The notes under the pieces were generated by a model, which did not search any database, had not been told where the DNA came from, and was given only the letters and a program-made list of their open reading frames with translations. Shown here one piece after another: positions 5,706 to 63,790 of a stretch of 64,000 nucleotides of DNA. The position numbers and the translations under genes were made by a program. How positions within the stretch are numbered: position 1 is the stretch's first letter; each line of letters starts with the position of its first letter. The DNA comes from an uncultured Candidatus Saccharibacteria bacterium (GTDB lineage: Bacteria > Patescibacteriota > Minisyncoccia > UBA6257 > UBA11618): the NCBI GenBank assembly GCA_964373915.1, contig CAYJWP010000001.1, positions 51,860 to 115,859 of the forward strand, given 5' to 3'.

Positions 5706-7493
5706 ATGGAAAACATTCGTAATTTTGTTATTATCGCTCATATTGACCACGGCAAGTCCACTCTAGCCGACCGCCTGCTGGAAATAACCGGCACGGTGGA
5801 CAAAAGGCATCTCCAACCTCAACATTTAGACCGATTAGAATCGGAAAGAGAAAGGGGAATTACCATTAAAATGGCGCCAGTGCGGATGATTTTTGGGGAT
5901 TATATACTGAATCTCATAGATACTCCCGGCCACAGTGATTTCGCTTATGAAGTTTCCCGAGCTCTGGCAGCCGTGGAGGGGGCGATATTGTTAGTTGATA
6001 TTTCCCAAGGCATTCAGGCGCAGACTTTGGCTAATTTTGAAACGGCTAAAAAAACTGGCCTTAAAATCATCGGCGCTGTTTCTAAAATAGACCTTAATTT
6101 GCCTCAAATAGAAGAAGTTGTTCAGTCCTTGGCCGAATTATTAGAAGTTAGAGAGGATGAAATTCTTAGAGTTTCCGGCAAAACGGGACAGGGCGTGGAA
6201 GAATTATTAGCAGCTGTTATTAAACGGTTTCCGCCGTCGCGCATTATTCCATCAAAAGAAGAAATTTCCCGCGCTCTCATTTTTGATTCTCTTTATGACG
6301 AACATAAGGGAGTAATTGCCTTTATAAGAATTTTTAACGGCAGTTTTAAAGGTAACGAGCAAATATCATTTCTAGCCACAAAATCAACCATTAAAGCTAA
6401 AGAGGTTGGATATTTTAATCCTCAATTGAAACCAGCTAAAGAATTATTCACGGGCGAGATTGGCTATATTGCCACTGGCCTTAAACAGCCGGAAAAAATA
6501 AAAATAGGTGATACAATTATTAATGTCAAAAATCAAAATCCAAATGTCAAAACTTTAGCCCTTCAGGGCTATAGAGAGCCTCAACCCGTAGTCTTTGTTT
6601 CTTTTTATCCCGAGGAAAATGATGACTATGATGATTTGAAAATTTCTTTGGCTAAATTAAAGCTTAACGACGCCTCCTTGTTTTTTGAGCCGGAAAGCAG
6701 CGAGCTTTTAGGCAGGGGATTTAAGGGAGGATTTTTAGGGAGATTGCACTTTGAGATTACCGCCGAACGGCTGGAAAAAGAATTTAATTTAAAAACAATC
6801 CAGAGCTTCCCCTCAGTTTCCTATCAGGTTAAGACCAGAAAGGGAGTGGAGGAAATCAGCAGTCCCAAGGATTTTCCCTATGATTATCTTGAAGTTTTAG
6901 AGCCAGTAATTCGGGTGGAAATCATTACCCCGCCTCAGTATTTAGGAGGCGTTTTGTCGCTCAAGCAGTTTTACAGAATAGGGGATTTTGAGACCAGAAA
7001 CATCGGCAATCGGGTAATTATTAAGGCCAAAATGCCCCTTGCCGACCTGATTAGCGATTTTGATGATAAGTTAAAATCCTTGTCAGAGGGCTACAGCTCT
7101 TTGAGTTATGAAATTATCGGTTATGAAAAAAGTAATCTGGCTAAGATGGAAATATTAATAGCCGGTCATCTTGTTCCCGGCCTGACCAGGATTATTCCAG
7201 CCGAGAGAATTGATCGCGAAGCCCGAACTACCGTGGGAAAACTTAAAGAATTTCTGCCTCGCCAGCAGTTCACTCAGGCGATACAGGCCGCCAGCGGCGG
7301 GCGGATTATTGCCCGTGAAACCATTGCTGCCCTTAAAAAAGATGTCACCGGCTACCTTTACGGCGGCGACCGCACCCGCAAGATGAAGCTTTGGAAGAAA
7401 CAGCAAAAAGGCAAGGCCAAACTTAAAGAACGGGCAGAATCTTCAGCTGTTCATATTCCGCCCTCTGTGTTTAAGGAGCTGCTGAAGAAATAA
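5706..7493 (+). CDS. lepA: translation elongation factor 4 (LepA)
   Basis: 595 aa. G-domain 'IIAHIDHGKSTLADRLLE' and a LepA-type C-terminal domain. Confidence 0.95.
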   Translation: MENIRNFVIIAHIDHGKSTLADRLLEITGTVDKRHLQPQHLDRLESERERGITIKMAPVRMIFGDYILNLIDTPGHSDFAYEVSRALAAVEGAILLVDISQGIQAQTLANFETAKKTGLKIIGAVSKIDLNLPQIEEVVQSLAELLEVREDEILRVSGKTGQGVEELLAAVIKRFPPSRIIPSKEEISRALIFDSLYDEHKGVIAFIRIFNGSFKGNEQISFLATKSTIKAKEVGYFNPQLKPAKELFTGEIGYIATGLKQPEKIKIGDTIINVKNQNPNVKTLALQGYREPQPVVFVSFYPEENDDYDDLKISLAKLKLNDASLFFEPESSELLGRGFKGGFLGRLHFEITAERLEKEFNLKTIQSFPSVSYQVKTRKGVEEISSPKDFPYDYLEVLEPVIRVEIITPPQYLGGVLSLKQFYRIGDFETRNIGNRVIIKAKMPLADLISDFDDKLKSLSEGYSSLSYEIIGYEKSNLAKMEILIAGHLVPGLTRIIPAERIDREARTTVGKLKEFLPRQQFTQAIQAASGGRIIARETIAALKKDVTGYLYGGDRTRKMKLWKKQQKGKAKLKERAESSAVHIPPSVFKELLKK

Positions 7494-7509
7494 TAGTGTA
7501 TAATTAATA

Positions 7510-7540
7510 GGGGAAAGAAAAACCCCCTTAATTAAGGGGG
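7510..7540. terminator. bidirectional rho-independent terminator (two adjacent GC hairpins)
   Basis: 'GGGGaaagaaaaaCCCCC' followed by the palindrome 'CCCCCTTAATTAAGGGGG'. T-tract on the minus strand. Overlaps the stop of the minus-strand small ORF. Confidence 0.7.
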
Positions 7541-7719
7541 CGGTCGGCTGGCCTCATCATGTCCAGCAGGTGATCCATCTCGCTAACGAGAGAGTCACTT
7601 TTTTGGATTAAATCGCTGTTCATTCGCTCGATTTGGCTGTGCTGGTCGGTATAAACCAATAACAGCCATCCGGCAGATGCAGCGAAAACGCAAGCCAACA
7701 GCACTAAAAGGTGTTTCAT
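7528..7719 (-). CDS. small signal-peptide/membrane protein (63 aa)
   Basis: Canonical minus-strand promoter (TTGACT-17-TATAAT at 7760-7787) and SD 'AAGGAG' 9 nt upstream of the ATG. Hydrophobic N-terminus 'LLVLLACVFAASAGWLLLV'. Confidence 0.5.
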   Translation of the reverse strand: MKHLLVLLACVFAASAGWLLLVYTDQHSQIERMNSDLIQKSDSLVSEMDHLLDMMRPADRPLN

Positions 7720-13208: not shown

Positions 13209-13282
13209 GCGAGATTAGTACAGTGGCAGTACGCTTGCTTCCCAAGCAAGAGACGCGAGTTCGATTCTCGTATCTCGCTCCA
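13209..13282 (+). tRNA. tRNA-Gly (anticodon CCC)
   Basis: Cloverleaf folded by hand. Acceptor GCGAGAT/ATCTCGC, D-arm GTAC-AGTGGCA-GTAC, anticodon loop TTCCCAA, T-arm GCGAG-TTCGATT-CTCGT, discriminator U, encoded CCA. Confidence 0.9.
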
Positions 13283-13285
13283 AGC

Positions 13286-13313
13286 AAAAGGGGGCTGACA
13301 GCCCCCTTTTTTT
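13286..13313 (+). terminator. rho-independent terminator after tRNA-Gly
   Basis: 'AAAGGGGGCTGACAGCCCCCTTTTTTT'. Confidence 0.75.
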
Positions 13314-13336
13314 GTGCTATAATTCAATCTATTCTA

Positions 13337-13408
13337 GCCGGAGTAGCTCAGTGGCAGAGCGGTGCTTTCGTAAAGCAAAGATCGCGAGTTCGATTCTCGC
13401 CTCCGGCT
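13337..13408 (+). tRNA. tRNA-Thr (anticodon CGT)
   Basis: Acceptor GCCGGAG/CTCCGGC, D-arm GCTC-AGTGGCA-GAGC, anticodon loop TTCGTAA, T-arm GCGAG-TTCGATT-CTCGC. CCA not encoded. Confidence 0.85.
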
Positions 13409-13435
13409 CAAAATTCCTACGGAATTTTGCAATAT

Positions 13436-14158
13436 ATGCGTCCACTATCAGATAAATACGACCAAAACAACGCCCATCTTTCTGTTCATGCCGGTGCTGG
13501 CGGAGACGATGCTAAGGATTGGGCCGGCATGCTTTTTAAAATGTATTTCAAATATGCCGGACGCAGGGGTTGGCAAACTATGGCGATTGATGATTTAACT
13601 ATGGATATCAAAGGAGATTATGCTTATGGAACTTTAAAAAAGGAAGCTGGCGTCCATCGGCTAGTGCGCATCTCTCCTTTTTCTACAAAAAAACTGCGCC
13701 ACACCTCATTTGCTTTAGTGGAAGTCCTGCCGGAGCTTCCGGAAATAGAAAGAAAAAAATTGGTTATCCCGGAAGATGATTTAAGGGTGGAAATGTTTCG
13801 CTCCAGCGGACCGGGCGGGCAAAATGTAAATAAGCGGGAAACCGCCGTCAGGGTCATCCACATGCCTAGCGGTTTGAGCGCCGCTTCGCAGGTAGAGCGC
13901 TCGCAAGCGCAAAATAAGGAAAAGGCGGTTAATCTGCTCAAAGCTCGCCTCATTAAGGTTATGGAGGAAAGGCGCATGCAGGAATTAAGTAATTTACAAA
14001 CTAAAATTGTGCCGGAGTGGGGTAGCCAGATTCGCTCTTATGTCCTGCACCCCTACAAGCAGGTTAAAGACCATCGCACCAAGGCTGTTAGCCACAATCC
14101 GGACAATGTTTTAGACGGTGACTTGGATAAGTTTATTGAATCGGAACTGGAAATTTGA
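13436..14158 (+). CDS. prfB: peptide chain release factor 2, N-terminally truncated (domains 2-4 only; domain 1 absent)
   Basis: 'HAGAGGDDAKDW', codon-recognition tripeptide 'SPF', 'SGPGGQNVNKRETAVRVIHMPSG' (GGQ), 'WGSQIRSYVLHPY'. The first ATG after tRNA-Thr sits about 15 aa before the 'HAGAGG' block. TTG 13427 is an alternative start. The 13223 ORF extension runs through the tRNAs and is spurious. Confidence 0.8.
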   Translation: MRPLSDKYDQNNAHLSVHAGAGGDDAKDWAGMLFKMYFKYAGRRGWQTMAIDDLTMDIKGDYAYGTLKKEAGVHRLVRISPFSTKKLRHTSFALVEVLPELPEIERKKLVIPEDDLRVEMFRSSGPGGQNVNKRETAVRVIHMPSGLSAASQVERSQAQNKEKAVNLLKARLIKVMEERRMQELSNLQTKIVPEWGSQIRSYVLHPYKQVKDHRTKAVSHNPDNVLDGDLDKFIESELEI

Positions 14159-14183
14159 TTATAATAAAACCTATTACCCCCCC

Positions 14184-14864
14184 ATGATAAATTTCATCAA
14201 TGTTTCTAAAGTCTACTCCAATAAATCCACTGCTCTAAATAATGTCAGTTTTAAGATAGACCCCAAGGAATTTGTAACCATTGTCGGTAAATCAGGGGCG
14301 GGTAAATCAACTATTATTAAACTTATTATTGGAGAAGAAAAACCTACCAGAGGCAAGGTTTTGTTTGCCAACCAGGAGGTGAATAAATTAACTTACAAAG
14401 AATTGCCTCTGTTAAGGAAAAGAATAGGTATTATTTTCCAAGACTTTCGCCTTTTACCGGCAAAAAATGCTCATGAGAATGTTGCTTTTGCGATGGAGGT
14501 CAGCGGTAAGTCGCAATTAGAAATTAATGAAGTAGTGCCTCAAATTTTAGATATGGTCGGATTGGGGGATAAAGCCGATCGCTTTCCCCATGAACTATCT
14601 GGAGGGGAGAGGCAGAGAGTGGCTATTGCTAGGGCGATGGTCAATCGGCCGGCGTTGATTATTGCCGATGAACCGACTGGCAATCTTGACCCAAGCAATA
14701 CGTGGGAGATAGTGGATATTCTCCTGAAAATTAATGAATTAGGCACCACGGTTATTCTAGCCACCCACAACAAGGATATTATTAACAACTTAGGCAGGCG
14801 CGTTATCAGCCTGGATGATGGTAAAATGATAAGAGACGAGAAAAAAGGCAGATATATTTTGTAA
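14184..14864 (+). CDS. ftsE: cell division ATP-binding protein FtsE
   Basis: ABC ATPase with Walker A 'GKSGAGKST', signature 'LSGGERQRVAIARA', and the FtsE-like 'MINFINVSKVY' N-terminus. Conserved prfB-ftsE-ftsX synteny. Confidence 0.9.
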   Translation: MINFINVSKVYSNKSTALNNVSFKIDPKEFVTIVGKSGAGKSTIIKLIIGEEKPTRGKVLFANQEVNKLTYKELPLLRKRIGIIFQDFRLLPAKNAHENVAFAMEVSGKSQLEINEVVPQILDMVGLGDKADRFPHELSGGERQRVAIARAMVNRPALIIADEPTGNLDPSNTWEIVDILLKINELGTTVILATHNKDIINNLGRRVISLDDGKMIRDEKKGRYIL

Positions 14865-15775
14865 TGGCCACTACTCTTTTTAGAATAATTAAATATGGCT
14901 GGCATAATTTTCGCCGCAATAGTTGGCTTTCTGTTGCCACTATTAGCATTTTACTTCTAACACTAATAGTTTTTCAGGGCTTGATTATTTTTCGGGTTAT
15001 CACTGGCGCGGCTATTGAAAGCTTAAAAGACAAAATAGATGTCAGTATATATTTTGCCACTGATGTTAGCGAGGAAAATATTTTAGAAATTCAAAAAAAG
15101 ATAGAGGTGCAAGACAAAGTTAAAAAAGTTGAATATATTTCCAGGGAAAAGGCTCTTGGAATATTTAAAGAAAAACATAAAGACGATCCCACTATTACTC
15201 AAGCTCTCCAAGAACTTGAGGACAATCCTCTTTCTGCCTCTTTAAATATTAAAGCCAACGAACCCAGCGATTACCCCGAGATCGCCTCGTTTTTAGACCA
15301 GCAAAAAAGCTGGCAGCCATTAATGGAAAAAGTTACTTATCGCCAAAACCAGCTGGTTATTGAGCGATTAGGCAAGATAGTGGATACCACCGAGAAATTA
15401 GGCTTAGCTTTGACTTTTTTCCTATCTTTAGCGGCTATTTTAGTAACTTTCAACACTATAAGCTTAGCTATCTACTCTAATCGTGAAGAAGTTAAAATTA
15501 TGCGATTAGTCGGCTCTTCTAACAGGTTAATAGTTGGCCCTTTTATAGTAACTGGCATTATCTACAGCGCCATCGCGGCCGTTTTAAGCCAGCTGATTAT
15601 CTGGCCCGTGGTTGTCACCACTTCTCCCTATCTCAAATTTTTTCTTTCAGAAACCGATTTAGCCTCCTATTACATGGATAATTTTTGGAAGCTTTTAGCC
15701 TACCAACTTTTATTTGGAGCTATTCTTGGCGCCGTCTCTGGCAAAATAGCTATTAGAAGGTATTTAAAAACTTAG
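14864..15775 (+). CDS. ftsX: cell division permease FtsX
   Basis: FtsX topology: TM1, large periplasmic loop, three C-terminal TMs. Immediately downstream of ftsE. Confidence 0.85.
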   Translation: MATTLFRIIKYGWHNFRRNSWLSVATISILLLTLIVFQGLIIFRVITGAAIESLKDKIDVSIYFATDVSEENILEIQKKIEVQDKVKKVEYISREKALGIFKEKHKDDPTITQALQELEDNPLSASLNIKANEPSDYPEIASFLDQQKSWQPLMEKVTYRQNQLVIERLGKIVDTTEKLGLALTFFLSLAAILVTFNTISLAIYSNREEVKIMRLVGSSNRLIVGPFIVTGIIYSAIAAVLSQLIIWPVVVTTSPYLKFFLSETDLASYYMDNFWKLLAYQLLFGAILGAVSGKIAIRRYLKT

Positions 15776-15795: not shown

Positions 15796-17238
15796 CTAAA
15801 ACCAACCCAGCAGGAATTGAGCTACCAACCCTAAAAATTCTTTTGATTCTATTCTCTTTGATTGAGGTTGTTGCAACTGCATCTGTAATTCTATAGAACG
15901 GAAATCTATATTTTCAGGAATTAATGACCTGAATTGTTCCGGTATTTGTGTAGGCGCTCCTTCAAGCAGGAAATTATTTAATCCTTCAAGGCTGGGCGGA
16001 GGAGGCCCCTGATAGTCCTTATCCGGAAATGAGTCTTGTCTTCCCGGAAACTCTTCCTGTCTGCTCGGGAAAGACCTGTCTTCTAAGCCCGGCGGCGTAA
16101 AATCAGCAAAACAACCTCGCATAATTTCCGGCATTTTAGTCCTCATTTCGAAAGGATTAAAATCAGGGCTATTCAGCAACTCTTCCAGTTTGGGCCCGAC
16201 GCACTCTGTAATCCCCGGCGGAGCATTTCCAGTTTCTTCATTAATCCGGCGGCGCACCTCCTCTTTTATTCGTCCACTTTCTCCTTTGGGGATGATTTTA
16301 TTAAAATTAAAATCTGGATTTTCTTTTTTAATCTCCTCAAAGAATTGTTCCGCTAATTCCGGCTTTGCATCAAAAACTTTTTCGCACTCCTGCCGGTTGC
16401 GACAACCTGTTTTTTCTTTGATTTTACGGGCAAACCGCGCTTCTTCTTGGCCGATAATCCCGTGCTCTATAGCAAAGGCGAAACAGACTTCCTCGTTGGC
16501 CGGATTGTCACAGTGTTTTTCACAAGCCCTTCCCCGACAACCTCCGGGACCCACTCCGCCGGTCTTTTTGACGATGCTGGCCTCTTGTTCTGTCATAAAA
16601 CCGGCGGCCACGCCGAACTTTATGCACTCATCCATTCTCTCCGGTTTAAAATCTCCGCCATCCGGCCCGCCGGCGCCAAAACAATAAGTCTCGCACTCCT
16701 CTTTATTGCGGCAACTGCCGGGAGTTTTAACGCCTCTTGCTAGAGCATCCCTGATTTTTTTCGCCTCTTCTAACTCTTGCCTGTCCATCACGTCATACTT
16801 TTCAGCGTAAGCCACACACTCATTAATATTGGCGACATCATCACAATAAGCGCGGCATTCATCAAAGCCTTGGCATCCGCCCGGCCCAGCGCCGCCTCTT
16901 AGCGATTGCGATAATTTCTCTACCTCGCTAGCCTCCTTGTTAGCGATAGGCCCCTCTAATAAGTTGTGTTTTTTAGCGAAAGCAAAACAAGCGGCAAAAT
17001 TATCGGGCTGGTCGCAATATAATCGGCACTCCTTTTCATTTTTACAGCCGCCTAATTCCTCTACGGGATAAACAATATCGTCCTTGGTGGCGGCTCCTGC
17101 CAGCGGCAACATCAGGAACAGAAAAAACAAAACTGCTAAAGTCGTAATAATTTTATTGTCCAGCTTATTACTCAAAGGGATTTTGATAAGTGTTTGAAAA
17201 TGGATTGGCTTTTTCCACCGGATTGACATCTTGGACAT
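15796..17238 (-). CDS. secreted cysteine-rich tandem-repeat protein (five C-x5/6-C-x3-C-x7/9-C modules) with a Pro-rich C-terminus
   Basis: Signal/TM 'IITTLAVLFFLFLMLPLAGAA'. Repeats 'GGCKNEKECRLYCDQPDNFAACFAFAKKH', 'GGCQGFDECRAYCDDVANINECVAYAEKY', 'GSCRNKEECETYCFGAGG...', 'GGCRGRACEKHCDNPANEEVCFAFAIEHG', 'TGCRNRQECEKVF'. Confidence 0.6.
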   Translation of the reverse strand: MSKMSIRWKKPIHFQTLIKIPLSNKLDNKIITTLAVLFFLFLMLPLAGAATKDDIVYPVEELGGCKNEKECRLYCDQPDNFAACFAFAKKHNLLEGPIANKEASEVEKLSQSLRGGAGPGGCQGFDECRAYCDDVANINECVAYAEKYDVMDRQELEEAKKIRDALARGVKTPGSCRNKEECETYCFGAGGPDGGDFKPERMDECIKFGVAAGFMTEQEASIVKKTGGVGPGGCRGRACEKHCDNPANEEVCFAFAIEHGIIGQEEARFARKIKEKTGCRNRQECEKVFDAKPELAEQFFEEIKKENPDFNFNKIIPKGESGRIKEEVRRRINEETGNAPPGITECVGPKLEELLNSPDFNPFEMRTKMPEIMRGCFADFTPPGLEDRSFPSRQEEFPGRQDSFPDKDYQGPPPPSLEGLNNFLLEGAPTQIPEQFRSLIPENIDFRSIELQMQLQQPQSKRIESKEFLGLVAQFLLGWF

Positions 17239-17416
17239 CTCCCAGGGGATTAATCGCCTTAATATCTACCCTAACGCCAAAATCTTCCGCTTTGGGAATT
17301 AACTCCGGCGCTAGTTGCGGAGTTGTTCCCGAATATGGCTGTTTAAAGACATAAAAAAACAAGAATCCCAATAACAACAAAACAGCAATAGCAATCCAAA
17401 GATAATATTGCTTCAT
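17168..17416 (-). CDS. possible small membrane protein (82 aa); overlaps the downstream gene start by 71 nt
   Basis: N-terminal TM 'LWIAIAVLLLLGFLFFYVF'. The overlap and lack of a recognisable RBS lower confidence. Confidence 0.3.
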   Translation of the reverse strand: MKQYYLWIAIAVLLLLGFLFFYVFKQPYSGTTPQLAPELIPKAEDFGVRVDIKAINPLGDVQDVNPVEKANPFSNTYQNPFE

Positions 17417-17452
17417 TAGCTTTTATTATATAGTATCCCTTTAAATTTTACT

Positions 17453-18592
17453 GTGGATAAGTTTGCTCGGTACGACATCTTTTTTTACGGAGTGGCAATG
17501 TTTCTAGCCGGAGTTTTGCTTTCTAGTTTAGGCATAAGTTTTTGGATTATTGCCGGCCTGGTAATTTTTTTAGCTTTAGCTTCCCGAATGTCATCTTTAA
17601 GCCCGTTGCTGATATTAGTTTTAGCCGGCTCTCTTTATTACTCATGGCGCATCTCTATGCCTCTGGAAATCTCTTTTGGCAAAGAAATTTTTGGATGGCT
17701 TTTAAACATTAAAGAGGGGATTATTGAGGCGCATCGGCGGCTCTTAGGCTCGGAGCAAGCGGCTTTTTTATCCGGCATTACCATCGGCCATCGTTATGGA
17801 TTTTCTCAAAATTTTCTGGAACGGCTTTCTTTAAGCGGCACCCGCCACGTAGTAGTGCTTTCGGGCTCTAATCTTACAATTCTCATTCTTATAATTATGC
17901 GGCTCCGCAGCTCTTTTCTTTCAAAAAAGTTTGCTTTTGCCCTTTCTTTTTTAACCGTTCTGGCCCTTGTGGCTATGACCGGCTTTGAAGTTTCCGCCGT
18001 GCGCGCCTCCTTAATGGCTTTTGTTTTCGGTATAGCCACTCAAAGCGAGCGCCTTTACAGCCCCCGTAATTCTATAGCTCTGGCAGGTTTAATTTTAATT
18101 CTCGTCAATCCTCAAAACCTTGTTTTTGATATCGGCTTCCAGCTTTCCTTTATGGCTATTCTTGGAGTAGCCTATATTTTACCTGCTTTAAAAAACGCTC
18201 TGCGGATAAAAACTTTTGGCGGGCTTGATTGGCGTGAAGCGGCCCTTGGAACAATCGCCGCCCAAACAGCAGTCGCGCCTATTTTAATCGCTAACTTCTC
18301 TAACTTCACTTTGACATCCTTTATCGCTAACGCTCTTATTTTGGCGGTGGTGCCGCCAACAATGATTGTTGGTTTTATTCTGGCGCTAGCCTACTGGCTG
18401 TTTTATCCGGCGGCGATTGTTTTAAGCTGGCTGGCGTCTTTCTTGCTCGGTTATCAGATTTTTGTTATAAATATTTTTTCTCGGATTTATCTGCCCTTTA
18501 ATCCTGATTTAGGATTTTTAGGAATCGCTATTTATTACGCCGTTGTTTTTATTTTTATCGCCAAGTTTTATGGAAAAAGAGCCGAATTATAA
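17453..18592 (+). CDS. comEC: ComEC/Rec2 DNA-internalization competence protein, membrane competence domain
   Basis: Multi-TM protein. 'LSGITIGHRYGFSQNFLERLSLSGTRHVVVLSGSNLTIL' matches the ComEC competence-domain signature. Confidence 0.8.
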   Translation: MDKFARYDIFFYGVAMFLAGVLLSSLGISFWIIAGLVIFLALASRMSSLSPLLILVLAGSLYYSWRISMPLEISFGKEIFGWLLNIKEGIIEAHRRLLGSEQAAFLSGITIGHRYGFSQNFLERLSLSGTRHVVVLSGSNLTILILIIMRLRSSFLSKKFAFALSFLTVLALVAMTGFEVSAVRASLMAFVFGIATQSERLYSPRNSIALAGLILILVNPQNLVFDIGFQLSFMAILGVAYILPALKNALRIKTFGGLDWREAALGTIAAQTAVAPILIANFSNFTLTSFIANALILAVVPPTMIVGFILALAYWLFYPAAIVLSWLASFLLGYQIFVINIFSRIYLPFNPDLGFLGIAIYYAVVFIFIAKFYGKRAEL

Positions 18593-19403
18593 AATTTATT
18601 TTTATTTTACTCTTATTATCCTTGCCGGCTTTAACCTATGGTTGTGGCGAGCCGTATTTTTTTCTAGTGGAGACATCAAACCGGCGGTTTATTTTTTTAA
18701 TGTAGGGCAAGGCGACAGCCAACTGATTGCCTTGCCGCCGGTTAACATTCTCATTGATGGAGGGAGAGGAAAAAGAGTTTTAGGAGAATTGGACAAAGTC
18801 TTCAGCGAGTTCAATGGCAAATATATTGATTTAGTAATTGCTACCCATGCCGATATTGACCATTTTGGCGGTCTCAGGGAGGTTGTGAAAAATTATCAAG
18901 TAGGCGCTTTTTTATTTAACGGCAAAGCCAGCAATAATTCCGCTTATTTAGAATTAGTATCGTTAGTAAATAGGGCGGGTATTCCCATTATCAATCTAGC
19001 CGCCAAAGATAAAATAAAATACAACAATGATTATCTAGCCGTTCTTTCTCCGGAAGCTAAAGAAATTTTTTATAACGATGATAATAATTCCAGCTTGGTT
19101 TTAATGTTGAACGCGGGCGGAGAAAAAGCCCTTTTTACTGGAGATATCAGTCTTAAAACTGAGGATAAATTAGCGAGCCGTTACGATTTAACCGCTGATA
19201 TTCTCAAGGTTTCCCATCACGGTTCCAAAAACTCATCCGGCGCTAATTTCTTAAATGATGTTTTGCCTAGAATTAGCGTTATCGGAGTTGGCAGAAACAG
19301 CTACGGCCATCCCCATCCTCTAACTATTGAACGTCTGCAAAAAGCCGGCTCTAAAATCTTTAGAACCGACACGGACGGCGCCATTAAAATTGTTTTAGAT
19401 TAA
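18570..19403 (+). CDS. ComEC C-terminal metallo-beta-lactamase domain protein (separate gene)
   Basis: MBL motifs 'VGQGDS', 'ATHADIDHFGG' (HxHxDH), 'KVSHHGS'. Start taken at ATG 18570 (MEKEPNY...). Overlaps the upstream comEC by about 23 nt. Confidence 0.8.
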   Translation: MEKEPNYKIYFYFTLIILAGFNLWLWRAVFFSSGDIKPAVYFFNVGQGDSQLIALPPVNILIDGGRGKRVLGELDKVFSEFNGKYIDLVIATHADIDHFGGLREVVKNYQVGAFLFNGKASNNSAYLELVSLVNRAGIPIINLAAKDKIKYNNDYLAVLSPEAKEIFYNDDNNSSLVLMLNAGGEKALFTGDISLKTEDKLASRYDLTADILKVSHHGSKNSSGANFLNDVLPRISVIGVGRNSYGHPHPLTIERLQKAGSKIFRTDTDGAIKIVLD

Positions 19404-19409
19404 TTACTT

Positions 19410-20381
19410 ATGAATCGCTGGTTAAAAATATTAATTATTTTGGCGGCTGCCGCCCTGTTTATCCAGGCCTCTGTTTATCTGGCTGTCAATCGGCGAGAGG
19501 CGGGGGAATTGGCGGCGCCCAGCCAGTTTAAAGAGTTGCATCTGGCGGATATTTCTAAAGAAACTAAACCGCCGTCAAAACTGGCAAACTTTCGCCTCTG
19601 TTCTTTTCAGACAAACTCTTTGCCATCCCATCAAGGAGCGGTTTTTAGCAGGATTGCCTGGGCGGGCTCCAGCGAGAACGCCAATGATGAGTGGTTTGAG
19701 ATAAAAAAAATATCAGCGGGGGAGATTAATATTTCCGGCTGGCAGGCTGTTAACAAGAACGAAAGATTAAAAGCGGTGGTCGCTCAAGAAACATTTTTAA
19801 CTGAAAGCAATCCCCTCTATCTCTTGAAAAGAAGCGTCCATTACACAGGGGCGCTGAAAAACAACAACGAAGGACTCCGGCTCTTTGATAAGAATTGCCA
19901 GCTTATTGATGAAGTTTTTGCTGATTCTGATTGGCCGGCAGGGGATAACGAATTAAAACTGGTGATGAAAAGAGCCGGGGACTTATCTTGGTATGATGAC
20001 AGAATAATTCCAGCTTCCCAGCAGGCCCAGAATATAAATAACGGCGCCGCTTCTGTCGTTATTTATGAAATTCAAGCCGGTTCCGAAGTATCCACGAATA
20101 ATGAATATATAAAACTGCGCAATCTCACCGAACAAACTATTAGTTTGGATGGCTGGTCATTAAAGAAAAAGACAGCTTCCGGTAAAGAATATACCCTGGT
20201 TTCTAGCTCAAAATTTACCGGATTGATAACGGCTCAAGGTTTTTTTGTTATTGCCCACAAAGATTATGAAGGCGAGGCAAATTTAAGATACTCCAACACT
20301 TCTAATTCTTTGGCTAATTCCAACAATACAGCAATTATTTACAATAAGAGCGGAAATTTAATCAGCGAGTTTAAGTATTAA
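19410..20381 (+). CDS. lamin-tail-domain (LTD) protein, two LTD copies, signal-anchored
   Basis: 'ANDEWFEIKKISAGEINISGWQ' and 'NNEYIKLRNLTEQTISLDGWSL' match the LTD signature (NE[WY][IV]E[IL]xN ... GW). Immediately downstream of comEC, as is common. Confidence 0.7.
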   Translation: MNRWLKILIILAAAALFIQASVYLAVNRREAGELAAPSQFKELHLADISKETKPPSKLANFRLCSFQTNSLPSHQGAVFSRIAWAGSSENANDEWFEIKKISAGEINISGWQAVNKNERLKAVVAQETFLTESNPLYLLKRSVHYTGALKNNNEGLRLFDKNCQLIDEVFADSDWPAGDNELKLVMKRAGDLSWYDDRIIPASQQAQNINNGAASVVIYEIQAGSEVSTNNEYIKLRNLTEQTISLDGWSLKKKTASGKEYTLVSSSKFTGLITAQGFFVIAHKDYEGEANLRYSNTSNSLANSNNTAIIYNKSGNLISEFKY

Positions 20382-20804: not shown

Positions 20805-21362
20805 TTAATTTAGATTATTATTAATGTTACAAACTTGCAGATTATTAATTTTTTTTGCTGTAAAAATAATTGATGTGCCTAGAATGCCCACGCTCAGCAA
20901 GCCGAACTCACCGCCATTGAGCGGCAGAACATAGATTAGTCCGCCGGCGCCGATTAAAGCTAGTAACGGCCCCAGAACTAATGTGCCGCAAGCGGCGCAA
21001 CCGACGCCAAAGACGCCGCTGACAAAACCCGCTAGACTGCCGGTCACGCCGCTCCTTATAGGCGCGCTTTTTTTCTGCCTCATATAATAAACAACCATAG
21101 CCGTATTAATGCCCAGTAAAACTGCAATCGCTACAGTGTAAGAGGCAGAAAGGGCGGTAAAATTCGTTCCGATGGACGTCATCAAGTTGGCCAAAAAAAT
21201 AACTTTTTCGGAAAAAACCACCATTGGGGAGCTTGTTATCTGCCAGATAAGTCCTAAATTGGGTAACCAAGTGGATAGCGCGAGCATTAACAAAGCAACC
21301 AACGCGGCTAGCGCCAGATAGGTGGCTTTTCTGAAAACCTTATTCAACGCCGAAAAAAGCAT
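20805..21362 (-). CDS. integral membrane protein with an intramembrane CxxC (VKOR/DsbB-like thiol-oxidoreductase partner, inferred)
   Basis: Four to five TM helices. 'GVFGVGCAACGTLVLG' (C-A-A-C) inside a TM helix. Directly downstream of a DsbA-like thioredoxin gene. Confidence 0.45.
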   Translation of the reverse strand: MLFSALNKVFRKATYLALAALVALLMLALSTWLPNLGLIWQITSSPMVVFSEKVIFLANLMTSIGTNFTALSASYTVAIAVLLGINTAMVVYYMRQKKSAPIRSGVTGSLAGFVSGVFGVGCAACGTLVLGPLLALIGAGGLIYVLPLNGGEFGLLSVGILGTSIIFTAKKINNLQVCNINNNLN

Positions 21363-21367
21363 CAGGT

Positions 21368-22090
21368 CTATTTCTCTTTTAGCGCCAACTCAACAACTTG
21401 CCTGATCGCTTCATAGGGCTGAGCGCCGTTGACAGGAAATTTTTTACCGTTAGAGGCAACAACAATACTCCACGGTGTGCCATTGCCGCCGGTAGCTATC
21501 GCGTCTTGCGCATCAGCCTCAATGTGGCCGGCAAACTTACCGCCCTTACTATCATTATCTTTAACCAATTTTTCAAAAGGAACGGGATTAAGCCCGACAT
21601 CTTTGGCTATTTGTACCAATTGAGAAAGTTCTAACTGGTCATTAGATGGCGTAATCTCAAATAACCTGTCTAAATAAGCCCAGAACTTGTCATTACCGCC
21701 CAATTCGCCTGCCAACTCCGCAGCCGCCGCCTCCATGCGGGCTTTGGAATGCAGCTGGTCAAGAGGGAAATGGCGGTAGACCCAAGCCACTTTGCCGTTG
21801 TATTCCTTAACTATTTGCTGGAGAGTCGGGTGAATTCTCTTGCAGAACGGGCACTCGGTATCGGAAAACTCCACTATTTTCACCGGAGCTTTTGAATCGC
21901 CTTTGATATGGTCTTTGCCGGTTATCGGTTTCAAATCATCAAGATTGCCCGTTGGCGGAGGTTCTTGGGGTAAAGCCCCAAGATTAGCTGAGGAACGGCC
22001 GACAGAATACACCACCGCCCCCGAAATAAGCACTCCCGCTATCAAAATTGATATGGGGAGAAAATAATTTCTCTTTTGTTGATTTTCCAT
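21368..22090 (-). CDS. DsbA-family thiol:disulfide oxidoreductase (thioredoxin fold)
   Basis: Active site 'ECPFCKRIHP' (CPFC), signal-anchor N-terminus, thioredoxin-like length. Start taken at internal ATG 22090 (MENQQ...). Confidence 0.8.
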   Translation of the reverse strand: MENQQKRNYFLPISILIAGVLISGAVVYSVGRSSANLGALPQEPPPTGNLDDLKPITGKDHIKGDSKAPVKIVEFSDTECPFCKRIHPTLQQIVKEYNGKVAWVYRHFPLDQLHSKARMEAAAAELAGELGGNDKFWAYLDRLFEITPSNDQLELSQLVQIAKDVGLNPVPFEKLVKDNDSKGGKFAGHIEADAQDAIATGGNGTPWSIVVASNGKKFPVNGAQPYEAIRQVVELALKEK

Positions 22091-22146
22091 TTTGATTTTG
22101 ATGTTAATTTTTATATTATGACTTTTAAAATACCAGCTTATCAAAA

Positions 22147-47996: not shown

Positions 47997-48045
47997 TTAT
48001 CCACAGCCATATAGCTTTACTTTATTTTTGTTATATAATTAAAGC

Positions 48046-48636
48046 ATGGACGCAACAAAGAATTTTATAAATACGCTTCTAGTGGTCGTTGTTCTTTTGT
48101 TAGTGGTGGTTCTGGTCCAGCAAGGACTTTTAGTGACGCCGGAAAGAAGAATAGAGGCCGCGGTTTCTTTTGTCGGAGATTTTGATATGTCCTGCTACAA
48201 TAAACTTGGAAAAACCAACTTCGGCTATACGGCCTTTATTACGCCCGAAGATTATGATGGCGACGGCCAGACAGACAGGTTTAATTTTGACGCCACCGGC
48301 AGCGGTGATCCTAATTTTTACTTACATACAGGCAATTTCAATCCTAGAAAAGTTTTCTTTGAAACTAATAACCCATCAATGTATGAGACCCTCACCTCCG
48401 TCCTTTTTCATCAATTAGATAATTTGGACAGCAAGATAAACTCCCAGATAGAATTGCTTTTAGCCACCGACGAAGGCGGTCCGTCCGTCCAGGTAATTGA
48501 GGATCAGCTCTCCTTACTTCTTGATGAAGAAGCAACGCTCTCAAAACAATTAAATCTTCTCCCTTATTTAGCGGGGCTTGAGGATGTCTCTCTAAATTGC
48601 CTTGACCTTGGTTTAGAAGAAGAATTTATTTTGTAA
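48046..48636 (+). CDS. hypothetical signal-anchored secreted protein
   Basis: N-terminal TM 'LLVVVVLLLVVVLV'. Acidic C-terminus. Confidence 0.5.
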   Translation: MDATKNFINTLLVVVVLLLVVVLVQQGLLVTPERRIEAAVSFVGDFDMSCYNKLGKTNFGYTAFITPEDYDGDGQTDRFNFDATGSGDPNFYLHTGNFNPRKVFFETNNPSMYETLTSVLFHQLDNLDSKINSQIELLLATDEGGPSVQVIEDQLSLLLDEEATLSKQLNLLPYLAGLEDVSLNCLDLGLEEEFIL

Positions 48637-48679
48637 AAATAGAGTTGAGTTTTTCCTTTGTTTGTTTTAATATCTCTTA

Positions 48680-48922
48680 ATGGATAAAAAAACAAACATA
48701 CTAATCACCTTTATAATAATTCTTTTAATAACAACCATCGCTCTTTGGAGGCAGAATTATGTTTTGAAAAAAACGGCGGAAAACGAAAAATCTAATTCTT
48801 TCGTTGAATCCTTAGAGTCATTAAAATCTTTAACCTCTACTCCTTCCAAAACAAAAGAATTGGAAGTGCTTCAAGAGCAACTTAAAAACCTTTTAGAGTT
48901 ACAGAAATCTTTTGGTCAGTAA
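48680..48922 (+). CDS. hypothetical small signal-anchored protein (80 aa)
   Basis: N-terminal TM 'ILITFIIILLITTIALW', then a coiled-coil-like tail. Confidence 0.45.
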   Translation: MDKKTNILITFIIILLITTIALWRQNYVLKKTAENEKSNSFVESLESLKSLTSTPSKTKELEVLQEQLKNLLELQKSFGQ

Positions 48923-48938
48923 ATCCCGCTACGCGGGA
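48923..48938. terminator. short GC hairpin between convergent genes
   Basis: 'TCCCGCTAGCGGGA'. Weak T-tract. Confidence 0.4.
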
Positions 48939-48942
48939 CAGG

Positions 48943-49932
48943 TTAACCGTGTCGAAAGACCATCACGTCTCCGTCTTTAACAAGATAGTCTTTTCCTTCC
49001 AAACGTATCAATCCCCTACTTTTAGCGTTTAGCCATGATCCGGAAGCAATTAGATTTTCATCACTAACTACCTCCGCTTTAATAAATTTTTTCTCAAAAT
49101 CAGTATGAATAACCCCCGCCGCTTGAGGAGCCTTACTGCCACGCATAATCGTCCAAGCTCTAGTTTCTTCCGGACCAGTGGTAAAAAAACTTATCAAATC
49201 CAAAATCTGATAGGCCTTTTGAATTAAAACCTCTAAAGCTTGCCGGCTTTTTTCTCCGCTGCTTAAATCAGCAATAACAAAACTTCCCTCCGGCAATTGC
49301 TTAGTAATATTAATATCTGTGCCATTCAAAATAAATAATTGTTTTTTAGCGGTTAAAAGGCCAAGATTTTTAATCGCCGACTCATTACAAAAATCCGCCA
49401 ACAACCCCCCTTGATCAAGTTTTTTCTTTACCCGTTCCATCAAAGCTCTCTCTTGTAGAGCAGTTTTATCGCCAGATTTCACCTCTTTTTCCAAGCTGGC
49501 TAATCTTTTTTCCACTGTTACTAAATCCTTTAAAATAAGTTCGGTGTTTATGATTTCCAAATCCCTTAGGGGGTCAACTAATCCCTCAACGTGAACAATA
49601 TTACTATCATTAAAACACCTCAAAACTATTAAAATGGCGTCTACTTCTCTAATATAAGACAAAAATTGATTACCTAATCCCTCTCCCTTGTTGGCGCCTC
49701 TTACTAAACCGGCAATATCATAAAATTCAACAACTGCTGGGATTATTTTCTCCGATTTACTTAAATTAGCTAATTGGGCTAATCTTTCATCAGGCACTTC
49801 CACCACTCCCACGTTGGGGTCAATAGTGCAAAAAGGATAATTGGCTATATTAACTTCTTTTTTGGTTAAAAATTTGAATAATGTGGACTTACCGACATTG
49901 GGAAGACCGACGATGCCGATTGATAGTTTCAT
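48943..49932 (-). CDS. ychF: ribosome-binding ATPase YchF (short form)
   Basis: 'IGIVGLPNVGKSTLF', 'NYPFCTIDPNVG', 'DIAGLVRGA'. Confidence 0.9.
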   Translation of the reverse strand: MKLSIGIVGLPNVGKSTLFKFLTKKEVNIANYPFCTIDPNVGVVEVPDERLAQLANLSKSEKIIPAVVEFYDIAGLVRGANKGEGLGNQFLSYIREVDAILIVLRCFNDSNIVHVEGLVDPLRDLEIINTELILKDLVTVEKRLASLEKEVKSGDKTALQERALMERVKKKLDQGGLLADFCNESAIKNLGLLTAKKQLFILNGTDINITKQLPEGSFVIADLSSGEKSRQALEVLIQKAYQILDLISFFTTGPEETRAWTIMRGSKAPQAAGVIHTDFEKKFIKAEVVSDENLIASGSWLNAKSRGLIRLEGKDYLVKDGDVMVFRHG

Positions 49933-49935
49933 AAA

Positions 49936-50544
49936 TCACTTATAATAAACTCTATTTTCTACCCTTAAGTCAATGTAATCAATATTTTTTAGAGATAGCT
50001 CGCCTTTATCTTGCAGCTGTTTTAAAGCAATTAAATTTATCTCTGGATTAAACCTTAAACTGGTAAAAATTTGAAAACCTGCCACGGCTGTCAATATCAA
50101 TTCCTGCCTATCTCTATCAACCACCATCTGATAAATCATTAAATCTTTTATTAATGGGGTGTTAATTATTTTTTTAAAATTAAACCACAATTTTTCAGGC
50201 AATACCTCACCCCCCAAACCGATTGCCCCATCCCCGCCCGTTAAACTCTCTTCTACTTTAATTACCAAACTTCCCTCGGGCTTTGGAGCGATGTCTATAA
50301 TACTACCCTCTTCGTCAAACCAATAGCACTTTTCATTGCCTGCCAACGAAACACACCAAACGCCCATGGATTTGGATTTTGAAATATTATTTTTTACTAT
50401 TTTTGCCGGTTGATTTTGCCAATTAAAAAAAATATAGCCCGATGCTGCTAACGTCAAAAAAAATAATATCAAAAAAAGCAGAATTTTTACTCTCTTTTTT
50501 ATTTTTTCCTGTCTTGTCTTCTTTTCTGGCCGGTAAATTTTCAT
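49936..50544 (-). CDS. FtsQ/DivIB-like (POTRA) cell-division protein, tentative
   Basis: TM near the N-terminus. C-terminal 'IDYIDLRVENRVYYK' resembles the FtsQ tail. Downstream of alr. Confidence 0.5.
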   Translation of the reverse strand: MKIYRPEKKTRQEKIKKRVKILLFLILFFLTLAASGYIFFNWQNQPAKIVKNNISKSKSMGVWCVSLAGNEKCYWFDEEGSIIDIAPKPEGSLVIKVEESLTGGDGAIGLGGEVLPEKLWFNFKKIINTPLIKDLMIYQMVVDRDRQELILTAVAGFQIFTSLRFNPEINLIALKQLQDKGELSLKNIDYIDLRVENRVYYK

Positions 50545-50550
50545 CCGGAT

Positions 50551-51693: not shown

Positions 51694-51721
51694 AATAAAA
51701 TCTTAAATAAGTATAACAAAG

Positions 51722-51750
51722 AAAGCGGCCTAGACGTCAGGGGCCGCTTT
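51722..51750 (-). terminator. rho-independent terminator for the 115-aa membrane-protein gene (upstream of alr)
   Basis: Minus strand reads 'AAGCGGCC...GGCCGCTTTCTTTGTT'. Adjacent to the TGA stop. Confidence 0.6.
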
Positions 51751-52098
51751 TCAATTAAGCGCAACAATTAATGTTCTTTGTAAAACGGCGACGAAACACA
51801 TTGCCCACGCAACCAGCACAAGCGCCTTTATGCCACATATCACCCAAAAAGCTCGCCTTACCCAACTAAATCTATCAAATGCTATAAAGAAGATGTAACC
51901 TGCAAAGAAAAGAAGAACCGGCACAACAACAAAAACGACAGGCTTAACGCCAAAAGAACTCATAGCCCATCTAAGTATGAGGTTAGCCTCAAAGGCAAAG
52001 CTCAATTCACTGTAATTATAAAAAAAATAATAAGTAACTAAAATATCAATCACGGACGCAATACCGAAAAACCAGAACAGAAGCGCCTTTCTTCTCAT
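51751..52098 (-). CDS. hypothetical membrane protein (three to four TM)
   Basis: Hydrophobicity pattern only. Confidence 0.45.
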   Translation of the reverse strand: MRRKALLFWFFGIASVIDILVTYYFFYNYSELSFAFEANLILRWAMSSFGVKPVVFVVVPVLLFFAGYIFFIAFDRFSWVRRAFWVICGIKALVLVAWAMCFVAVLQRTLIVALN

Positions 52099-52263
52099 CG
52101 CCGCAACCTCCTTCTATTATCAAATGGCTAACAAGACTCCGGTTTCATTGTAGCAAGTTTAAATAGTTCTGGCAATAGGGGCAAGTTTTGGCTTTACTAT
52201 CTCTTACTTATTGGTTATATTGCAAACAGTAGGAATAATTCAGCCCTTTAACAAGGAGTTACT

Positions 52264-52806: not shown

Positions 52807-52807
52807 A

Positions 52808-52835
52808 CGCCCGATCAAACTGGTCGGGTTTTTTT
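52808..52835. terminator. bidirectional rho-independent terminator
   Basis: 'CCCGATCAAACTGGTCGGGTTTTTTT'. The T-tract overlaps the serS stop codon. Confidence 0.7.
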
Positions 52836-56676: not shown

Positions 56677-56691
56677 TCCATGATTATAGCA

Positions 56692-58027: not shown

Positions 58028-58051
58028 ATTATTATAACCTTAAATGTCCGT

Positions 58052-59762: not shown

Positions 59763-59766
59763 ATAG

Positions 59767-60276: not shown

Positions 60277-60291
60277 AGATATGAAAAATGA

Positions 60292-60660: not shown

Positions 60661-60687
60661 GTTGAATTTTAAGTATTTAATATTTTA

Positions 60688-61939: not shown

Positions 61940-61942
61940 AAT

Positions 61943-62128: not shown

Positions 62129-62133
62129 AAAAA

Positions 62134-62924: not shown

Positions 62925-62932
62925 AGATACAA

Positions 62933-63301: not shown

Positions 63302-63335
63302 AAATTCAAATGATTAACTTTAAATCTTTAAATAT

Positions 63336-63786: not shown

Positions 63787-63790
63787 AAAT

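Follow-up and report, generated by a model that had tools for sequence, protein, structure and literature searches.

Two adjacent open reading frames on the minus strand of the window, by which we mean the whole 64,000-nucleotide stretch of DNA that was analysed, are described here. The first, gene 1 (ORF82, positions 17168..17416), encodes an 82-aa bitopic membrane protein whose tail carries NPF motifs, and the second, gene 2 (15796..17175), encodes a secreted Cys-repeat protein of 459 aa when read from the TTG start codon that we propose below. An earlier note on this DNA had described the same two frames, as 15796-17238 (480 aa) and 17168-17416 (82 aa), both on the minus strand and overlapping by 71 nt, and had suspected that one of the two might be a wrong call. 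We confirm both frames, and also the overlap, provided that the first ATG of the Cys-repeat gene is used.

The two frames are a strictly conserved gene pair across Patescibacteria, which the earlier note had missed. We retrieved 58 loci (the window and 57 others) via a pattern in the large gene only (48-aa N-terminal alignment, metagenome scan), and in all 58 a homologue of gene 1 lies directly upstream on the same strand. The homologues of the 82-aa frame are kept as proteins at every locus, which makes this frame a real gene. Reciprocally, each of the five NPF genes that were looked up adjoins a Cys-repeat gene, as does the NPF gene at the one locus that a scan of a genome collection yielded (L006). 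The junctions are tight: 14 loci share an 8-nt overlap, and roughly half of the others have gaps of at most 12 nt or overlaps of at most 11 nt. Beyond the pair, no conserved neighbour, the window's ftsEX and comEC included, is common to more than five of 32 loci examined, and the neighbours that several of these loci share are housekeeping genes. Natural fusions of the two proteins were not found among the long family members of the Cys-repeat protein. These long members are extended at the N-terminus by another domain, of about 100 aa.

The product of gene 1 has a transmembrane (TM) helix at residues 3-24 (17345..17410, minus strand), which AF2 models as a helix over the same residues with a pLDDT of about 90, and this hydrophobic segment is conserved in the family alignment (A3). 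The C-terminal tail is predicted to be disordered, AF2 giving it no secondary structure and a pLDDT of 49-67. Its last part (17171..17254, minus strand) contains four NP motifs (NPL, NPV, NPF and NPF) and ends in YQNPFE (NPF peptide: KANPFSNTYQNPFE). The family consensus of the tail is 'NPxxxxPExNPxxKTNPFKDxYKNPFE', and N65, N71, P72, N79, P80 and F81 are invariant. The family comprises 291 matches, with lengths of 72-139 aa among the 120 matches listed, and ORF82 itself is identical to a protein (P0146) recorded by NCBI and in a Logan assembly. No significant match to gene 1 turned up in Pfam, NCBIfam, PHROGs or PADLOC. A positive-inside analysis leaves the topology ambiguous, with K/R flanking the TM helix on both sides. 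We had considered that each NP motif might serve one module of the partner protein, an idea that we dropped because the numbers of motifs and modules are uncorrelated (Spearman 0.10 and 0.27, not significant).

All features of gene 2 given here likewise lie on the minus strand. The protein begins with a putative signal peptide at residues 1-28 (17092..17175), which reads MSNKLDNK-IITTLAVLFFLFLMLPLAGA and is followed by ATKDD; AF2 models a helix at residues 6-21. The N-terminal hydrophobic leader had previously been taken for a signal anchor. It instead looks like a cleavable Sec-type signal peptide (..LPLAGA|ATKDD), with a predicted cleavage site at AGA|A and no twin-arginine motif, and homologues have the same n/h/c leader layout immediately ahead of the DI motif. 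This motif, DIVYPVEELGGC (residues 33-44; 17044..17079), would lie at the mature N-terminus. It is the most conserved stretch of the family, occurs in 235 of 292 members and served as our search pattern, and its P37, L41 and C44 are invariant in the protein's family alignment (A1).

A series of Cys modules follows, which we delimited with a module HMM from whose construction the window protein had been left out. Module 1 (residues 40-74; 16954..17058) has the pattern C44-x5-C50-x3-C54-x8-C63 (i-E 7.5e-19) and is modelled by AF2 with helices at 47-54 and 57-69, at a pLDDT above 90. Module 2 (residues 96-134; 16774..16890) has its cysteines at C101, C107, C111 and C120, which are invariant in A1 (i-E 9e-20). 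Module 3 (residues 150-198; 16582..16728) has the spacing C-x5-C-x3-C-x18-C, the C3-C4 interval being lengthened by 10 aa, an insertion shared by two homologues (P0014 and P0018), and its HMM match is split in two halves (i-E 7.8e-9 and 1.4e-8). Module 4 (residues 208-245; 16441..16554) is C-x4-C-x3-C-x8-C (i-E 5.2e-16). A degenerate half module 5, GCRNRQECEK (residues 257-266; 16378..16407; i-E 0.001), retains C1 and C2 only, with F and Q in place of C3 and C4 ('GCRNRQECEKVF'). The repeats are far above chance, since the HMM recognises modules 1, 2 and 4 with i-E values between 5e-16 and 9e-20 and also picks up each half of module 3. The modules are followed by a helical domain with two cysteines, PPGITEC...MRGCFADF (residues 319-359; 16099..16221), in which C325 is invariant in A1; AF2 places helices at 320-334 and 341-359, and relatives share a 'PPEVxxC...MRxCFE' region. 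Next come a linker that is Pro-rich and acidic on reading the sequence and probably disordered (residues 360-444; 15844..16098; AF2 pLDDT mostly below 50 from residue 367) and a putative hydrophobic or amphipathic helix (residues 445-459; 15799..15843; AF2 helix at 445-454, low confidence) with the end FLGLVAQFLLGWF. At least 126 of 292 family members have a hydrophobic C-terminal tail; it consists of 13-16 hydrophobic residues, and usually ends in R, K or F, often with R or K as the final residue. Since the helix is missing in many members, anchoring through it would not be universal.

This layout agrees with the earlier note as to the N-terminal hydrophobic leader, the tandem four-Cys modules, the Pro-rich acidic C-terminal region and the 'LLGWF' end, and revises it in other respects. 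The note had counted five tandem four-Cys modules of about 33 aa; there are four complete ones, the fifth being the two-Cys half module ahead of the conserved two-Cys domain, and they recur every 45-58 aa in the window (every 48-54 aa in most homologues), with the 33 aa covering just the conserved core. The four-Cys pattern itself stands, with C-x5-C-x3-C-x8-C as the dominant form, from which modules 3 (x18) and 4 (x4) deviate. The cysteines are also kept in orthologues: all four are present in 1017 of 1039 modules, the x5/x3/x8 spacing occurs in 688 of the approximately 810 modules found, and 108 of 120 proteins have an even number of cysteines. Two-Cys half modules occur in two forms, with C1-C2 only, as in module 5 of the window, or with C3-C4 only (P0118 and P0052). 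The Cys-repeat gene contains no tandem repeat at the DNA level, so the duplication of the modules is old. The AF2 model of the whole protein (mean pLDDT 77.6, pTM 0.60) is helical throughout residues 30-360, mostly at a pLDDT of 85-97, with three helices per module and no beta-strands except one isolated bridge.

The Cys-repeat family is large. Among 1.84 billion cluster representatives we found 1,963 clusters (50% identity) at E<=1e-3, and 1,249 at E<=1e-30. Its members are multi-module chains of 400-1500 aa, and the organism names attached to them and to the NPF family are all Patescibacteria lineages, among them Jorgensen-, Colwell-, Nealson-, Wolfe-, Sung-, Wildermuth-, Lloyd- and Daviesbacteria, or an unresolved 'bacterium'. 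The window protein has the traits that define the family, namely a signal peptide, the DIxFPVxELGxC motif and at least four C-x5-C-x3-C-x8-C modules, and directly upstream on the same strand is the small TM protein ending in ..NPF..YxNPFx. The view that the repeat belongs to no known family is borne out: nothing in Pfam, NCBIfam, PHROGs or PADLOC matches the window protein significantly, the PDB yielded no match by sequence (single sequence and profile) and no significant match by fold to the model, and we found no description of the Cys-repeat/NPF family in the literature. The best Pfam match is PF25052 (12.5 bits, E=0.19), a family of plant AtDEF-like proteins which, like Nodulin_late (PF07127), combine a signal peptide with a following Cys-rich stretch. 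Two family members just pass the cut-off of 25 bits; among five homologues tested singly, only two score 27-28 bits, always over the signal peptide and module 1. We nonetheless rejected membership for the window protein, given its score below 25 bits, its model of helices only rather than an alpha/beta fold, and its length of more than 400 aa with many modules. The Cys-repeat protein represents a family that is new but of a generally familiar kind, and two new protein families are defined here, one by the four-Cys three-helix module and the other by the NPF-tail anchor.

Several known systems resemble the pair in part. Three-helix-bundle surface rods of Gram-positive bacteria (S. aureus Ebh, protein A, GA modules, pneumococcal CbpA/PspC R domains and the GBS beta antigen) are also secreted chains of small three-helix units, in a host cell with a single membrane, and have a C-terminal spacer followed by a hydrophobic end. 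However, the window protein has no sequence or profile similarity to these rods (Pfam, PDB), and differs from them in the absence of an LPXTG sortase signal and in its obligatory small partner gene with an NPF tail. To our knowledge, the rod families of the Ebh, protein A and CbpA type are Cys-free, in contrast to the four invariant cysteines per module here. No sortase, PEP-CTERM or other sorting signal was matched in NCBIfam at E<=1, a library presumed to include such models, reading the translation revealed no LPXTG, and the C-terminal hydrophobic tail, often ending in R or K, bears a loose resemblance to such signals only. A second likeness is to the Helicobacter Hcp and Sel1-like repeat proteins, which are secreted and consist of alpha-helical repeats that are each stapled by a disulfide. 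Sel1-like repeats have 36 aa, two helices and two cysteines, whereas the modules described here have about 52 aa, three helices and four cysteines. A weak Foldseek match to the SLR protein 4bwr (E=7.3) is not significant, and Sel1 (PF08238) matches neither the window protein at E<=10 nor any of 51 family members at E<=0.01. We know of no partner gene for Hcp. The pair also recalls the recognition of NPF motifs by eukaryotic EH domains, in that a disordered tail with several NPF motifs is joined by a helical partner, and this likeness in the motif suggests recognition of a short linear motif. Here the system is bacterial, probably extracellular, and the interaction is a presumed one; a Pfam search detected neither an EH domain nor an EF-hand.

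Patescibacteria (the candidate phyla radiation) make up a large part of bacterial diversity, are almost wholly uncultivated and live attached to other cells, and their conserved surface proteins are mostly unannotated. Considering the pair against this background, we tentatively propose, with a confidence slightly short of even, that it is a translationally coupled two-gene cassette for a surface rod that is conserved across Patescibacteria, mainly in Parcubacteria lineages. Gene 1 would supply a single-pass membrane protein with a disordered tail of about 55 aa that carries two to five NPx/NPF short linear motifs and always ends in '..NPF..Y(K/Q)NPF(E/K)'. The product of gene 2 would be exported by Sec and, after cleavage, carry 'DIxFPVxELGxC' at its mature N-terminus, followed by a rod of 4-13 three-helix modules, the two-Cys domain, the Pro-rich spacer and the amphipathic C-terminal helix. 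The organism's membrane-anchored DsbA/MdbA-like oxidoreductase may make the disulfides of the modules. The rod would then be displayed on the cell surface, held or organised by the NPF tail of gene 1, and might serve as an envelope, spacer or attachment structure. The protein is probably at the cell surface, a role that we guess from its architecture. This arrangement presumes that the gene 1 tail lies outside; if the tail were cytoplasmic, it could not tether a secreted protein. A bolder version, which we regard as unlikely, is that the pair is a lineage-wide two-component surface device, in which the NPF-motif tail recruits and tethers a disulfide-stapled rod of unseen fold, at the core of the envelope or host-attachment apparatus of these episymbionts. 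If this were true, the device would be a bacterial extracellular counterpart of motif docking by eukaryotic NPF/EH-domain systems. With its approximately 2,000 clusters (50% identity), a confident predicted fold that lacks a match and a linked partner, the pair is in any case a testable candidate for a core component of the envelope or attachment apparatus.

The large protein could instead be a released effector, of an antimicrobial defensin-like or a protease-inhibitor-like kind, directed against the host or competitors, with the small protein acting as, for example, an immunity or export helper rather than an anchor. Of 51 family members, 13 match PF25052 with scores of 20-28 bits, a late-nodulin match being weaker, some members contain Kazal domains (P0038, P0039, P0046 and L029), the next gene at one locus (L002) has one as well, and a signal peptide that looks cleavable would leave no N-terminal anchor. 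However, the AtDEF-like matches span only the signal peptide and module 1, with the window protein at half of the cut-off, and the all-alpha model lacks the beta-sheet of defensin or Kazal folds. Chains of 400-1500 aa that combine many modules with a Pro-rich spacer and end in a hydrophobic helix are moreover typical of surface proteins, and the pair, which sits amid housekeeping genes, resembles a lineage-wide gene and not an accessory weapon. We thus consider an effector quite improbable.

We judge it no more probable that the small NPF protein serves the large one as a specialised factor for export, folding or assembly, such as a membrane chaperone or targeting partner, possibly on the cytoplasmic side, and forms no permanent tether. 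The strict pairing and translational coupling, which imply roughly matched synthesis, would suit such a factor, as would the ambiguous topology with K/R after the TM helix and the lack of correlation between motif and module numbers. On the other hand, the small protein is unlike any known chaperone or secretion component, and a tail that is disordered over about 55 aa and repeats short motifs suits docking or tethering somewhat better than it would a folding catalyst.

The surface-rod proposal further presumes that the cysteines are oxidised. The earlier note had suggested either a disulfide-rich or a metal-binding extracellular module; the former fits best, and the latter is disfavoured. Most likely each module contains two disulfides, the pairs probably being C1-C2 and C3-C4. 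A membrane-anchored DsbA/Thioredoxin_4 protein with a CPFC site is encoded in the window, 4 kb from the pair. MdbA-like oxidoreductases and VKOR are reported to be enriched in CPR bacteria (bioRxiv 10.1101/335083). The alternative, that the four cysteines bind Zn, Cu, Fe or an Fe-S cluster and that the protein is an extracellular metal store, metallochaperone or redox wire, draws on the four invariant cysteines per module, which are close in sequence, and a clustered site is geometrically conceivable because C2 and C3 lie one helical turn apart in the AF2 model, with C4 on the next helix. Disulfides are, moreover, less favoured in anoxic groundwater, the habitat of many Patescibacteria, which also counts for metal. 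We still hold metal binding to be highly improbable. The leader is of the Sec type and lacks a twin-arginine motif, for which reason a fold already loaded with a cofactor would not be exported; half modules with two cysteines persist in the family, and cysteine numbers remain even; a DsbA-like oxidase that acts outside the cytoplasm is encoded in the genome; neither a ferredoxin or zinc ribbon nor any other family or fold with a metal site was matched; and, its generally acidic composition aside, no conserved His/Asp ligands stand out in the module consensus. An Fe-S or zinc-ribbon Cys4 site was likewise rejected, as the spacing C-x5-C-x3-C-x8-C is unlike CxxCxxCxxxCP or paired CxxC knuckles. 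The knottin- or zinc-ribbon-like fold that had been envisaged is not seen in the all-alpha model, which, its isolated bridge aside, has no strands to form the beta-hairpin knuckles of a zinc ribbon.

The 71-nt overlap between the genes probably reflects a miscalled start codon, not a genuine long overlap. The earlier statement that no alternative start removes it was imprecise: an in-frame TTG at 17175 shrinks the overlap to 8 nt (TTGAGTAA), and three later starts (TTG 17130, ATG 17112 and TTG 17109) abolish it entirely, at the price of destroying the signal peptide. Starting at TTG 17175 gives a signal peptide of standard length and places 32 aa before the DI motif, compared with 50 for ATG 17229 and 53 for ATG 17238; the family median is 33, and 24-40 aa precede the motif in 81% of 189 homologues. 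Two loci (L004 and L055) have an ATG in the same 8-nt register, at a third (L007) a TTG is the sole start that retains the signal peptide, and an independent Logan gene call on an identical contig (L061) starts 8 nt before the end of the small frame. ATG 17229, used in the NCBI protein (P0001, 477 aa), and ATG 17238 (480 aa) are less likely starts. That one of the calls is an artefact, with ORF82 untranslated or the long overlap real and unusual, is scarcely credible: the NCBI start, with its 62-nt overlap, does have GGGAG 9 nt upstream, and TTG 17175 lacks a Shine-Dalgarno sequence and is an automatic by-product of 'F-E-TAA' in ORF82, but the conservation of ORF82 homologues as proteins, the register and leader at the three loci, the Logan call and the distance to the DI motif all speak against it. 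The 21-residue N-terminal extension produced by the ATG start is, moreover, the conserved tail of ORF82 read in the +1 frame. The miscall corrected here appears to be recurrent, in that some called homologues have long N-terminal extensions that resemble alternate-frame readings of the partner's conserved tail, an origin that we demonstrated directly for the window and for one further locus (L002).

The Cys-repeat ORF (15796-17238, minus strand; 480 aa counted from the first ATG) has an unmatched fold and belongs to a gene pair that is strictly conserved across the lineage; this gives it more interest than a Cys-rich ORF on its own would have. The other member, directly upstream, is ORF82 (17168-17416, minus strand), which encodes an 82-aa small membrane protein with an NPF-motif tail. 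The pair is flanked on one side by ftsE/ftsX (14118-15775, plus strand) and on the other by a split comEC (17453-19403, plus strand). The earlier note considered that one of the two calls might be wrong, but ORF82 is a real partner gene of the Cys-repeat gene, as an NPF-tail ORF lies upstream in all loci examined. A metagenome scan queried with the motif of the large gene only returned 54 loci, and in all 54, as well as in the window and in three distant genomes, an ORF with an NPF-rich tail ends 65-198 nt ahead of the codons for 'DI', the start of the 'DIxFPVxELGxC' motif at the mature N-terminus. By a rough estimate, chance would place such an ORF upstream in less than 1% of loci. The three distant genomes have a small gene of 76-90 aa called directly upstream, and the sole genome-scan locus (L006, labelled Saccharibacteria) also contains the pair. 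Reciprocally, a Cys-repeat gene came next in five of five cases when NPF genes were looked up by identity; one of these five is in a genome labelled Daviesbacteria, another in a record with Tara among its sources.

The 47 distinct small proteins share an N-terminal transmembrane helix, then a variable linker and then the tail '..NPxxxxPExNPxxKTNPFKDxYKNPFE', with N65, N71, P72, N79, P80 and F81 invariant. A profile search with the small protein gave 291 of these (range 72-139 aa for the 120 listed). Their organism names are all Patescibacteria lineages or the generic 'bacterium', and their only functional names, 'FliL' and 'FtsL', are automatic and spurious. AlphaFold2 predicts a confident transmembrane helix at residues 3-24 of ORF82 and an unstructured tail. 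When all neighbours in 32 loci were clustered, no other conserved neighbour gene was found; the most widely shared ones, in no more than 5 of the 32, are housekeeping genes (fmt, def and PGI among them).

We consider it likely that the large gene starts at TTG 17175, which together with the ORF82 stop forms TTGAGTAA, an 8-nt overlap, and gives 'MSNKLDNK-IITTLAVLFFLFLMLPLAGA/ATKDD'. The 21 residues from the first ATG to this TTG ('MSKMSIRWKKPIHFQTLIKIP') are the +1-frame reading of the conserved ORF82 tail 'DVNPVEKANPFSNTYQNPFE*', which explains their similarity among the few homologues called with long N-termini. The 8-nt register recurs in 14 loci, with ATG as its codon in L004/L005 and L055/L056; in another locus (L007) the start in this register is the only one that keeps the signal peptide, and in a Logan contig with an identical ORF82 the downstream gene is called from 8 nt before the small-ORF end. 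In 189 called homologues, a median of 33 aa separates the start from the DI motif (81% within 24-40); in the window this distance is 32 aa from TTG 17175, 50 from ATG 17229 and 53 from ATG 17238. There are two caveats: the 'F-E-TAA' ending of ORF82 creates a TTG automatically, and TTG 17175 lacks a Shine-Dalgarno sequence, while GGGAG precedes ATG 17229 by 9 nt. The claim that no alternative start removes the overlap was imprecise, since the in-frame TTG 17130, ATG 17112 and TTG 17109, downstream of the ORF82 stop, would do so; we rejected these starts because they truncate the signal peptide.

Counted from TTG 17175, the large protein has 459 residues. It consists of a hydrophobic leader, four complete four-Cys modules (C1-C4), a half module with two Cys, a two-Cys helical domain, a Pro-rich acidic stretch and a hydrophobic end, '...FLGLVAQFLLGWF'. 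Of the five tandem four-Cys modules described before, four are therefore complete and the fifth is only a half module; the unit, described as 33 aa, measures ~52 aa from the successive C1-to-C1 distances (57, 54, 58 and 45 aa). Modules 1 and 2 have the spacing C-x5-C-x3-C-x8-C, module 3 has x18 between C3 and C4, and module 4 has x4 between C1 and C2. An HMM trained on 686 modules taken from other proteins matches modules 1, 2 and 4 at i-E 5e-16 to 9e-20, and module 3 as two halves, each at ~1e-8. No DNA-level tandem repeat was found in the gene.

At least 239 homologues came from a word-indexed search; wherever they carry an organism name, it is that of a Patescibacteria lineage. In an exhaustive profile search, clusters at 50% identity numbered 1,963 at a cut-off of E<=1e-3 and 1,249 at E<=1e-30. 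Members have 4-13 modules (median 6). The Cys spacing, whose loss in orthologues would have spoken against the repeat, is conserved: x5/x3/x8 occurs in 688 of ~810 modules found, and all four Cys are kept in 1017 of 1039 HMM-detected modules. The DI motif is present in 235 of 292 members, and a hydrophobic or amphipathic C-terminal helix in at least 126 of the 292. As the earlier note held, the repeat is not assignable to a known family: none of Pfam, NCBIfam, PHROGs and PADLOC names the window protein, and we found no description of the family in the literature. PF25052 (AtDEF-like) matches 13 of 51 members weakly (20-28 bits) and always across the signal peptide plus module 1; we regard these hits as a precursor-like pattern match. 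Functionally unassigned families such as this one are common in Patescibacteria.

Family variants carry one of three additions. An extra ~100-aa two-Cys domain ('..LKKDxxGLFTLTIRDPxGIxEFSL..DCAGN..'; no family assignment) lies between signal peptide and DI motif in P0309, P0323, P0327, P0344, P0353 and P0374. Kazal-type domains are at the C-terminus of the L029 large protein, P0038, P0039 and P0046; at L002, the gene that follows the pair (6583-7626) also has a Kazal-type domain, together with Gmad2. Twelve of 292 members, including P0065, P0071, P0091, P0105, L052 and L053, have the ending '..CxYxGxxxSxNYxxCKQCFPD(K/R)' instead of the hydrophobic helix. At L067 (2501-4571), the Cys-repeat gene begins 323 nt downstream of the NPF gene, with neither the signal peptide nor the first modules; this copy has probably been disrupted or misassembled.

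AlphaFold2, run with 51 sequences, gives an all-alpha model of the large protein (mean pLDDT 77.6, pTM 0.60; residues 30-360 mostly at pLDDT 85-97), in which residues 367-459 are disordered except for short helices. Of the three helices in each module, the first is short and holds C2 and C3, separated by one turn, the second holds C4 and the third is a linker; C1 is in a 'GPGGC' loop immediately N-terminal of the first helix. The most economical reading is that the pair is translationally coupled and that its products would be a helical rod, secreted and stapled by disulfides, and a small membrane protein whose motif-bearing tail may hold the rod at the cell surface by docking or tethering. 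Secreted helical-repeat surface proteins are already familiar as a general kind. Candidate contacts are the most conserved parts of each protein: in the rod, module 1 together with the mature N-terminus, and in the small protein, the final 15 tail residues. The docking reading is weakened by the number of NP motifs, which does not scale with module number, and by the charge bias, which does not settle the orientation of the small protein. In two less likely alternatives, the large protein would be a released effector or inhibitor, or the small protein would be an export or assembly helper.

Metal binding by the module Cys is the least likely of the remaining rivals, as disulfides are better supported: the signal sequence is of the Sec type without a twin-arginine motif, Cys numbers are even (108 of 120 family proteins) and Cys are lost in pairs. 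Half module 5 retains only C1-x5-C2, and P0118 and P0052 have isolated 'F-C-x6-C' units corresponding to C3-C4, a pattern of loss that suggests C1-C2 and C3-C4 bonds. Disulfides are further favoured by a membrane-anchored DsbA/Thioredoxin_4 protein encoded in the window (21368-22144, minus strand; CPFC active site, E=3.9e-17) and by the reported enrichment of MdbA-like oxidoreductases with VKOR in CPR (bioRxiv 10.1101/335083). The DsbA/Thioredoxin_4 gene is followed by one for a 185-aa polytopic membrane protein (20805-21362, minus strand) with 'GVGCAACGTL' and no Pfam match, which could be its redox partner; both genes are on the strand of the Cys-repeat gene, 4 kb away from it.

ORF82 and comEC start divergently, 36 nt apart (17417-17452). 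The ORF82 ATG has no Shine-Dalgarno sequence and a TATAAT 8 nt ahead of it, hinting at a very short or absent leader. The Competence and metallo-beta-lactamase domains of comEC are encoded by two ORFs (17453-18592 and 18543-19403, plus strand) in different reading frames that share 50 nt, which reflects either a frameshift or a natural split. Directly after comEC, 19410-20381 (plus strand) encodes a protein of 323 aa that carries a lamin-tail domain (PF00932, E=5.7e-20). For ftsE, the listed GTG start (14118) appears too far upstream, and the mechanical ORF at 13223-14158 (plus strand) must start further downstream, because its 5′ end overlaps tRNA-Gly and tRNA-Thr (13209-13409). GC skew is near zero before ~48 kb and strongly negative (-0.1 to -0.28) from there on (~48000-64000), coinciding with a long stretch of minus-strand genes.
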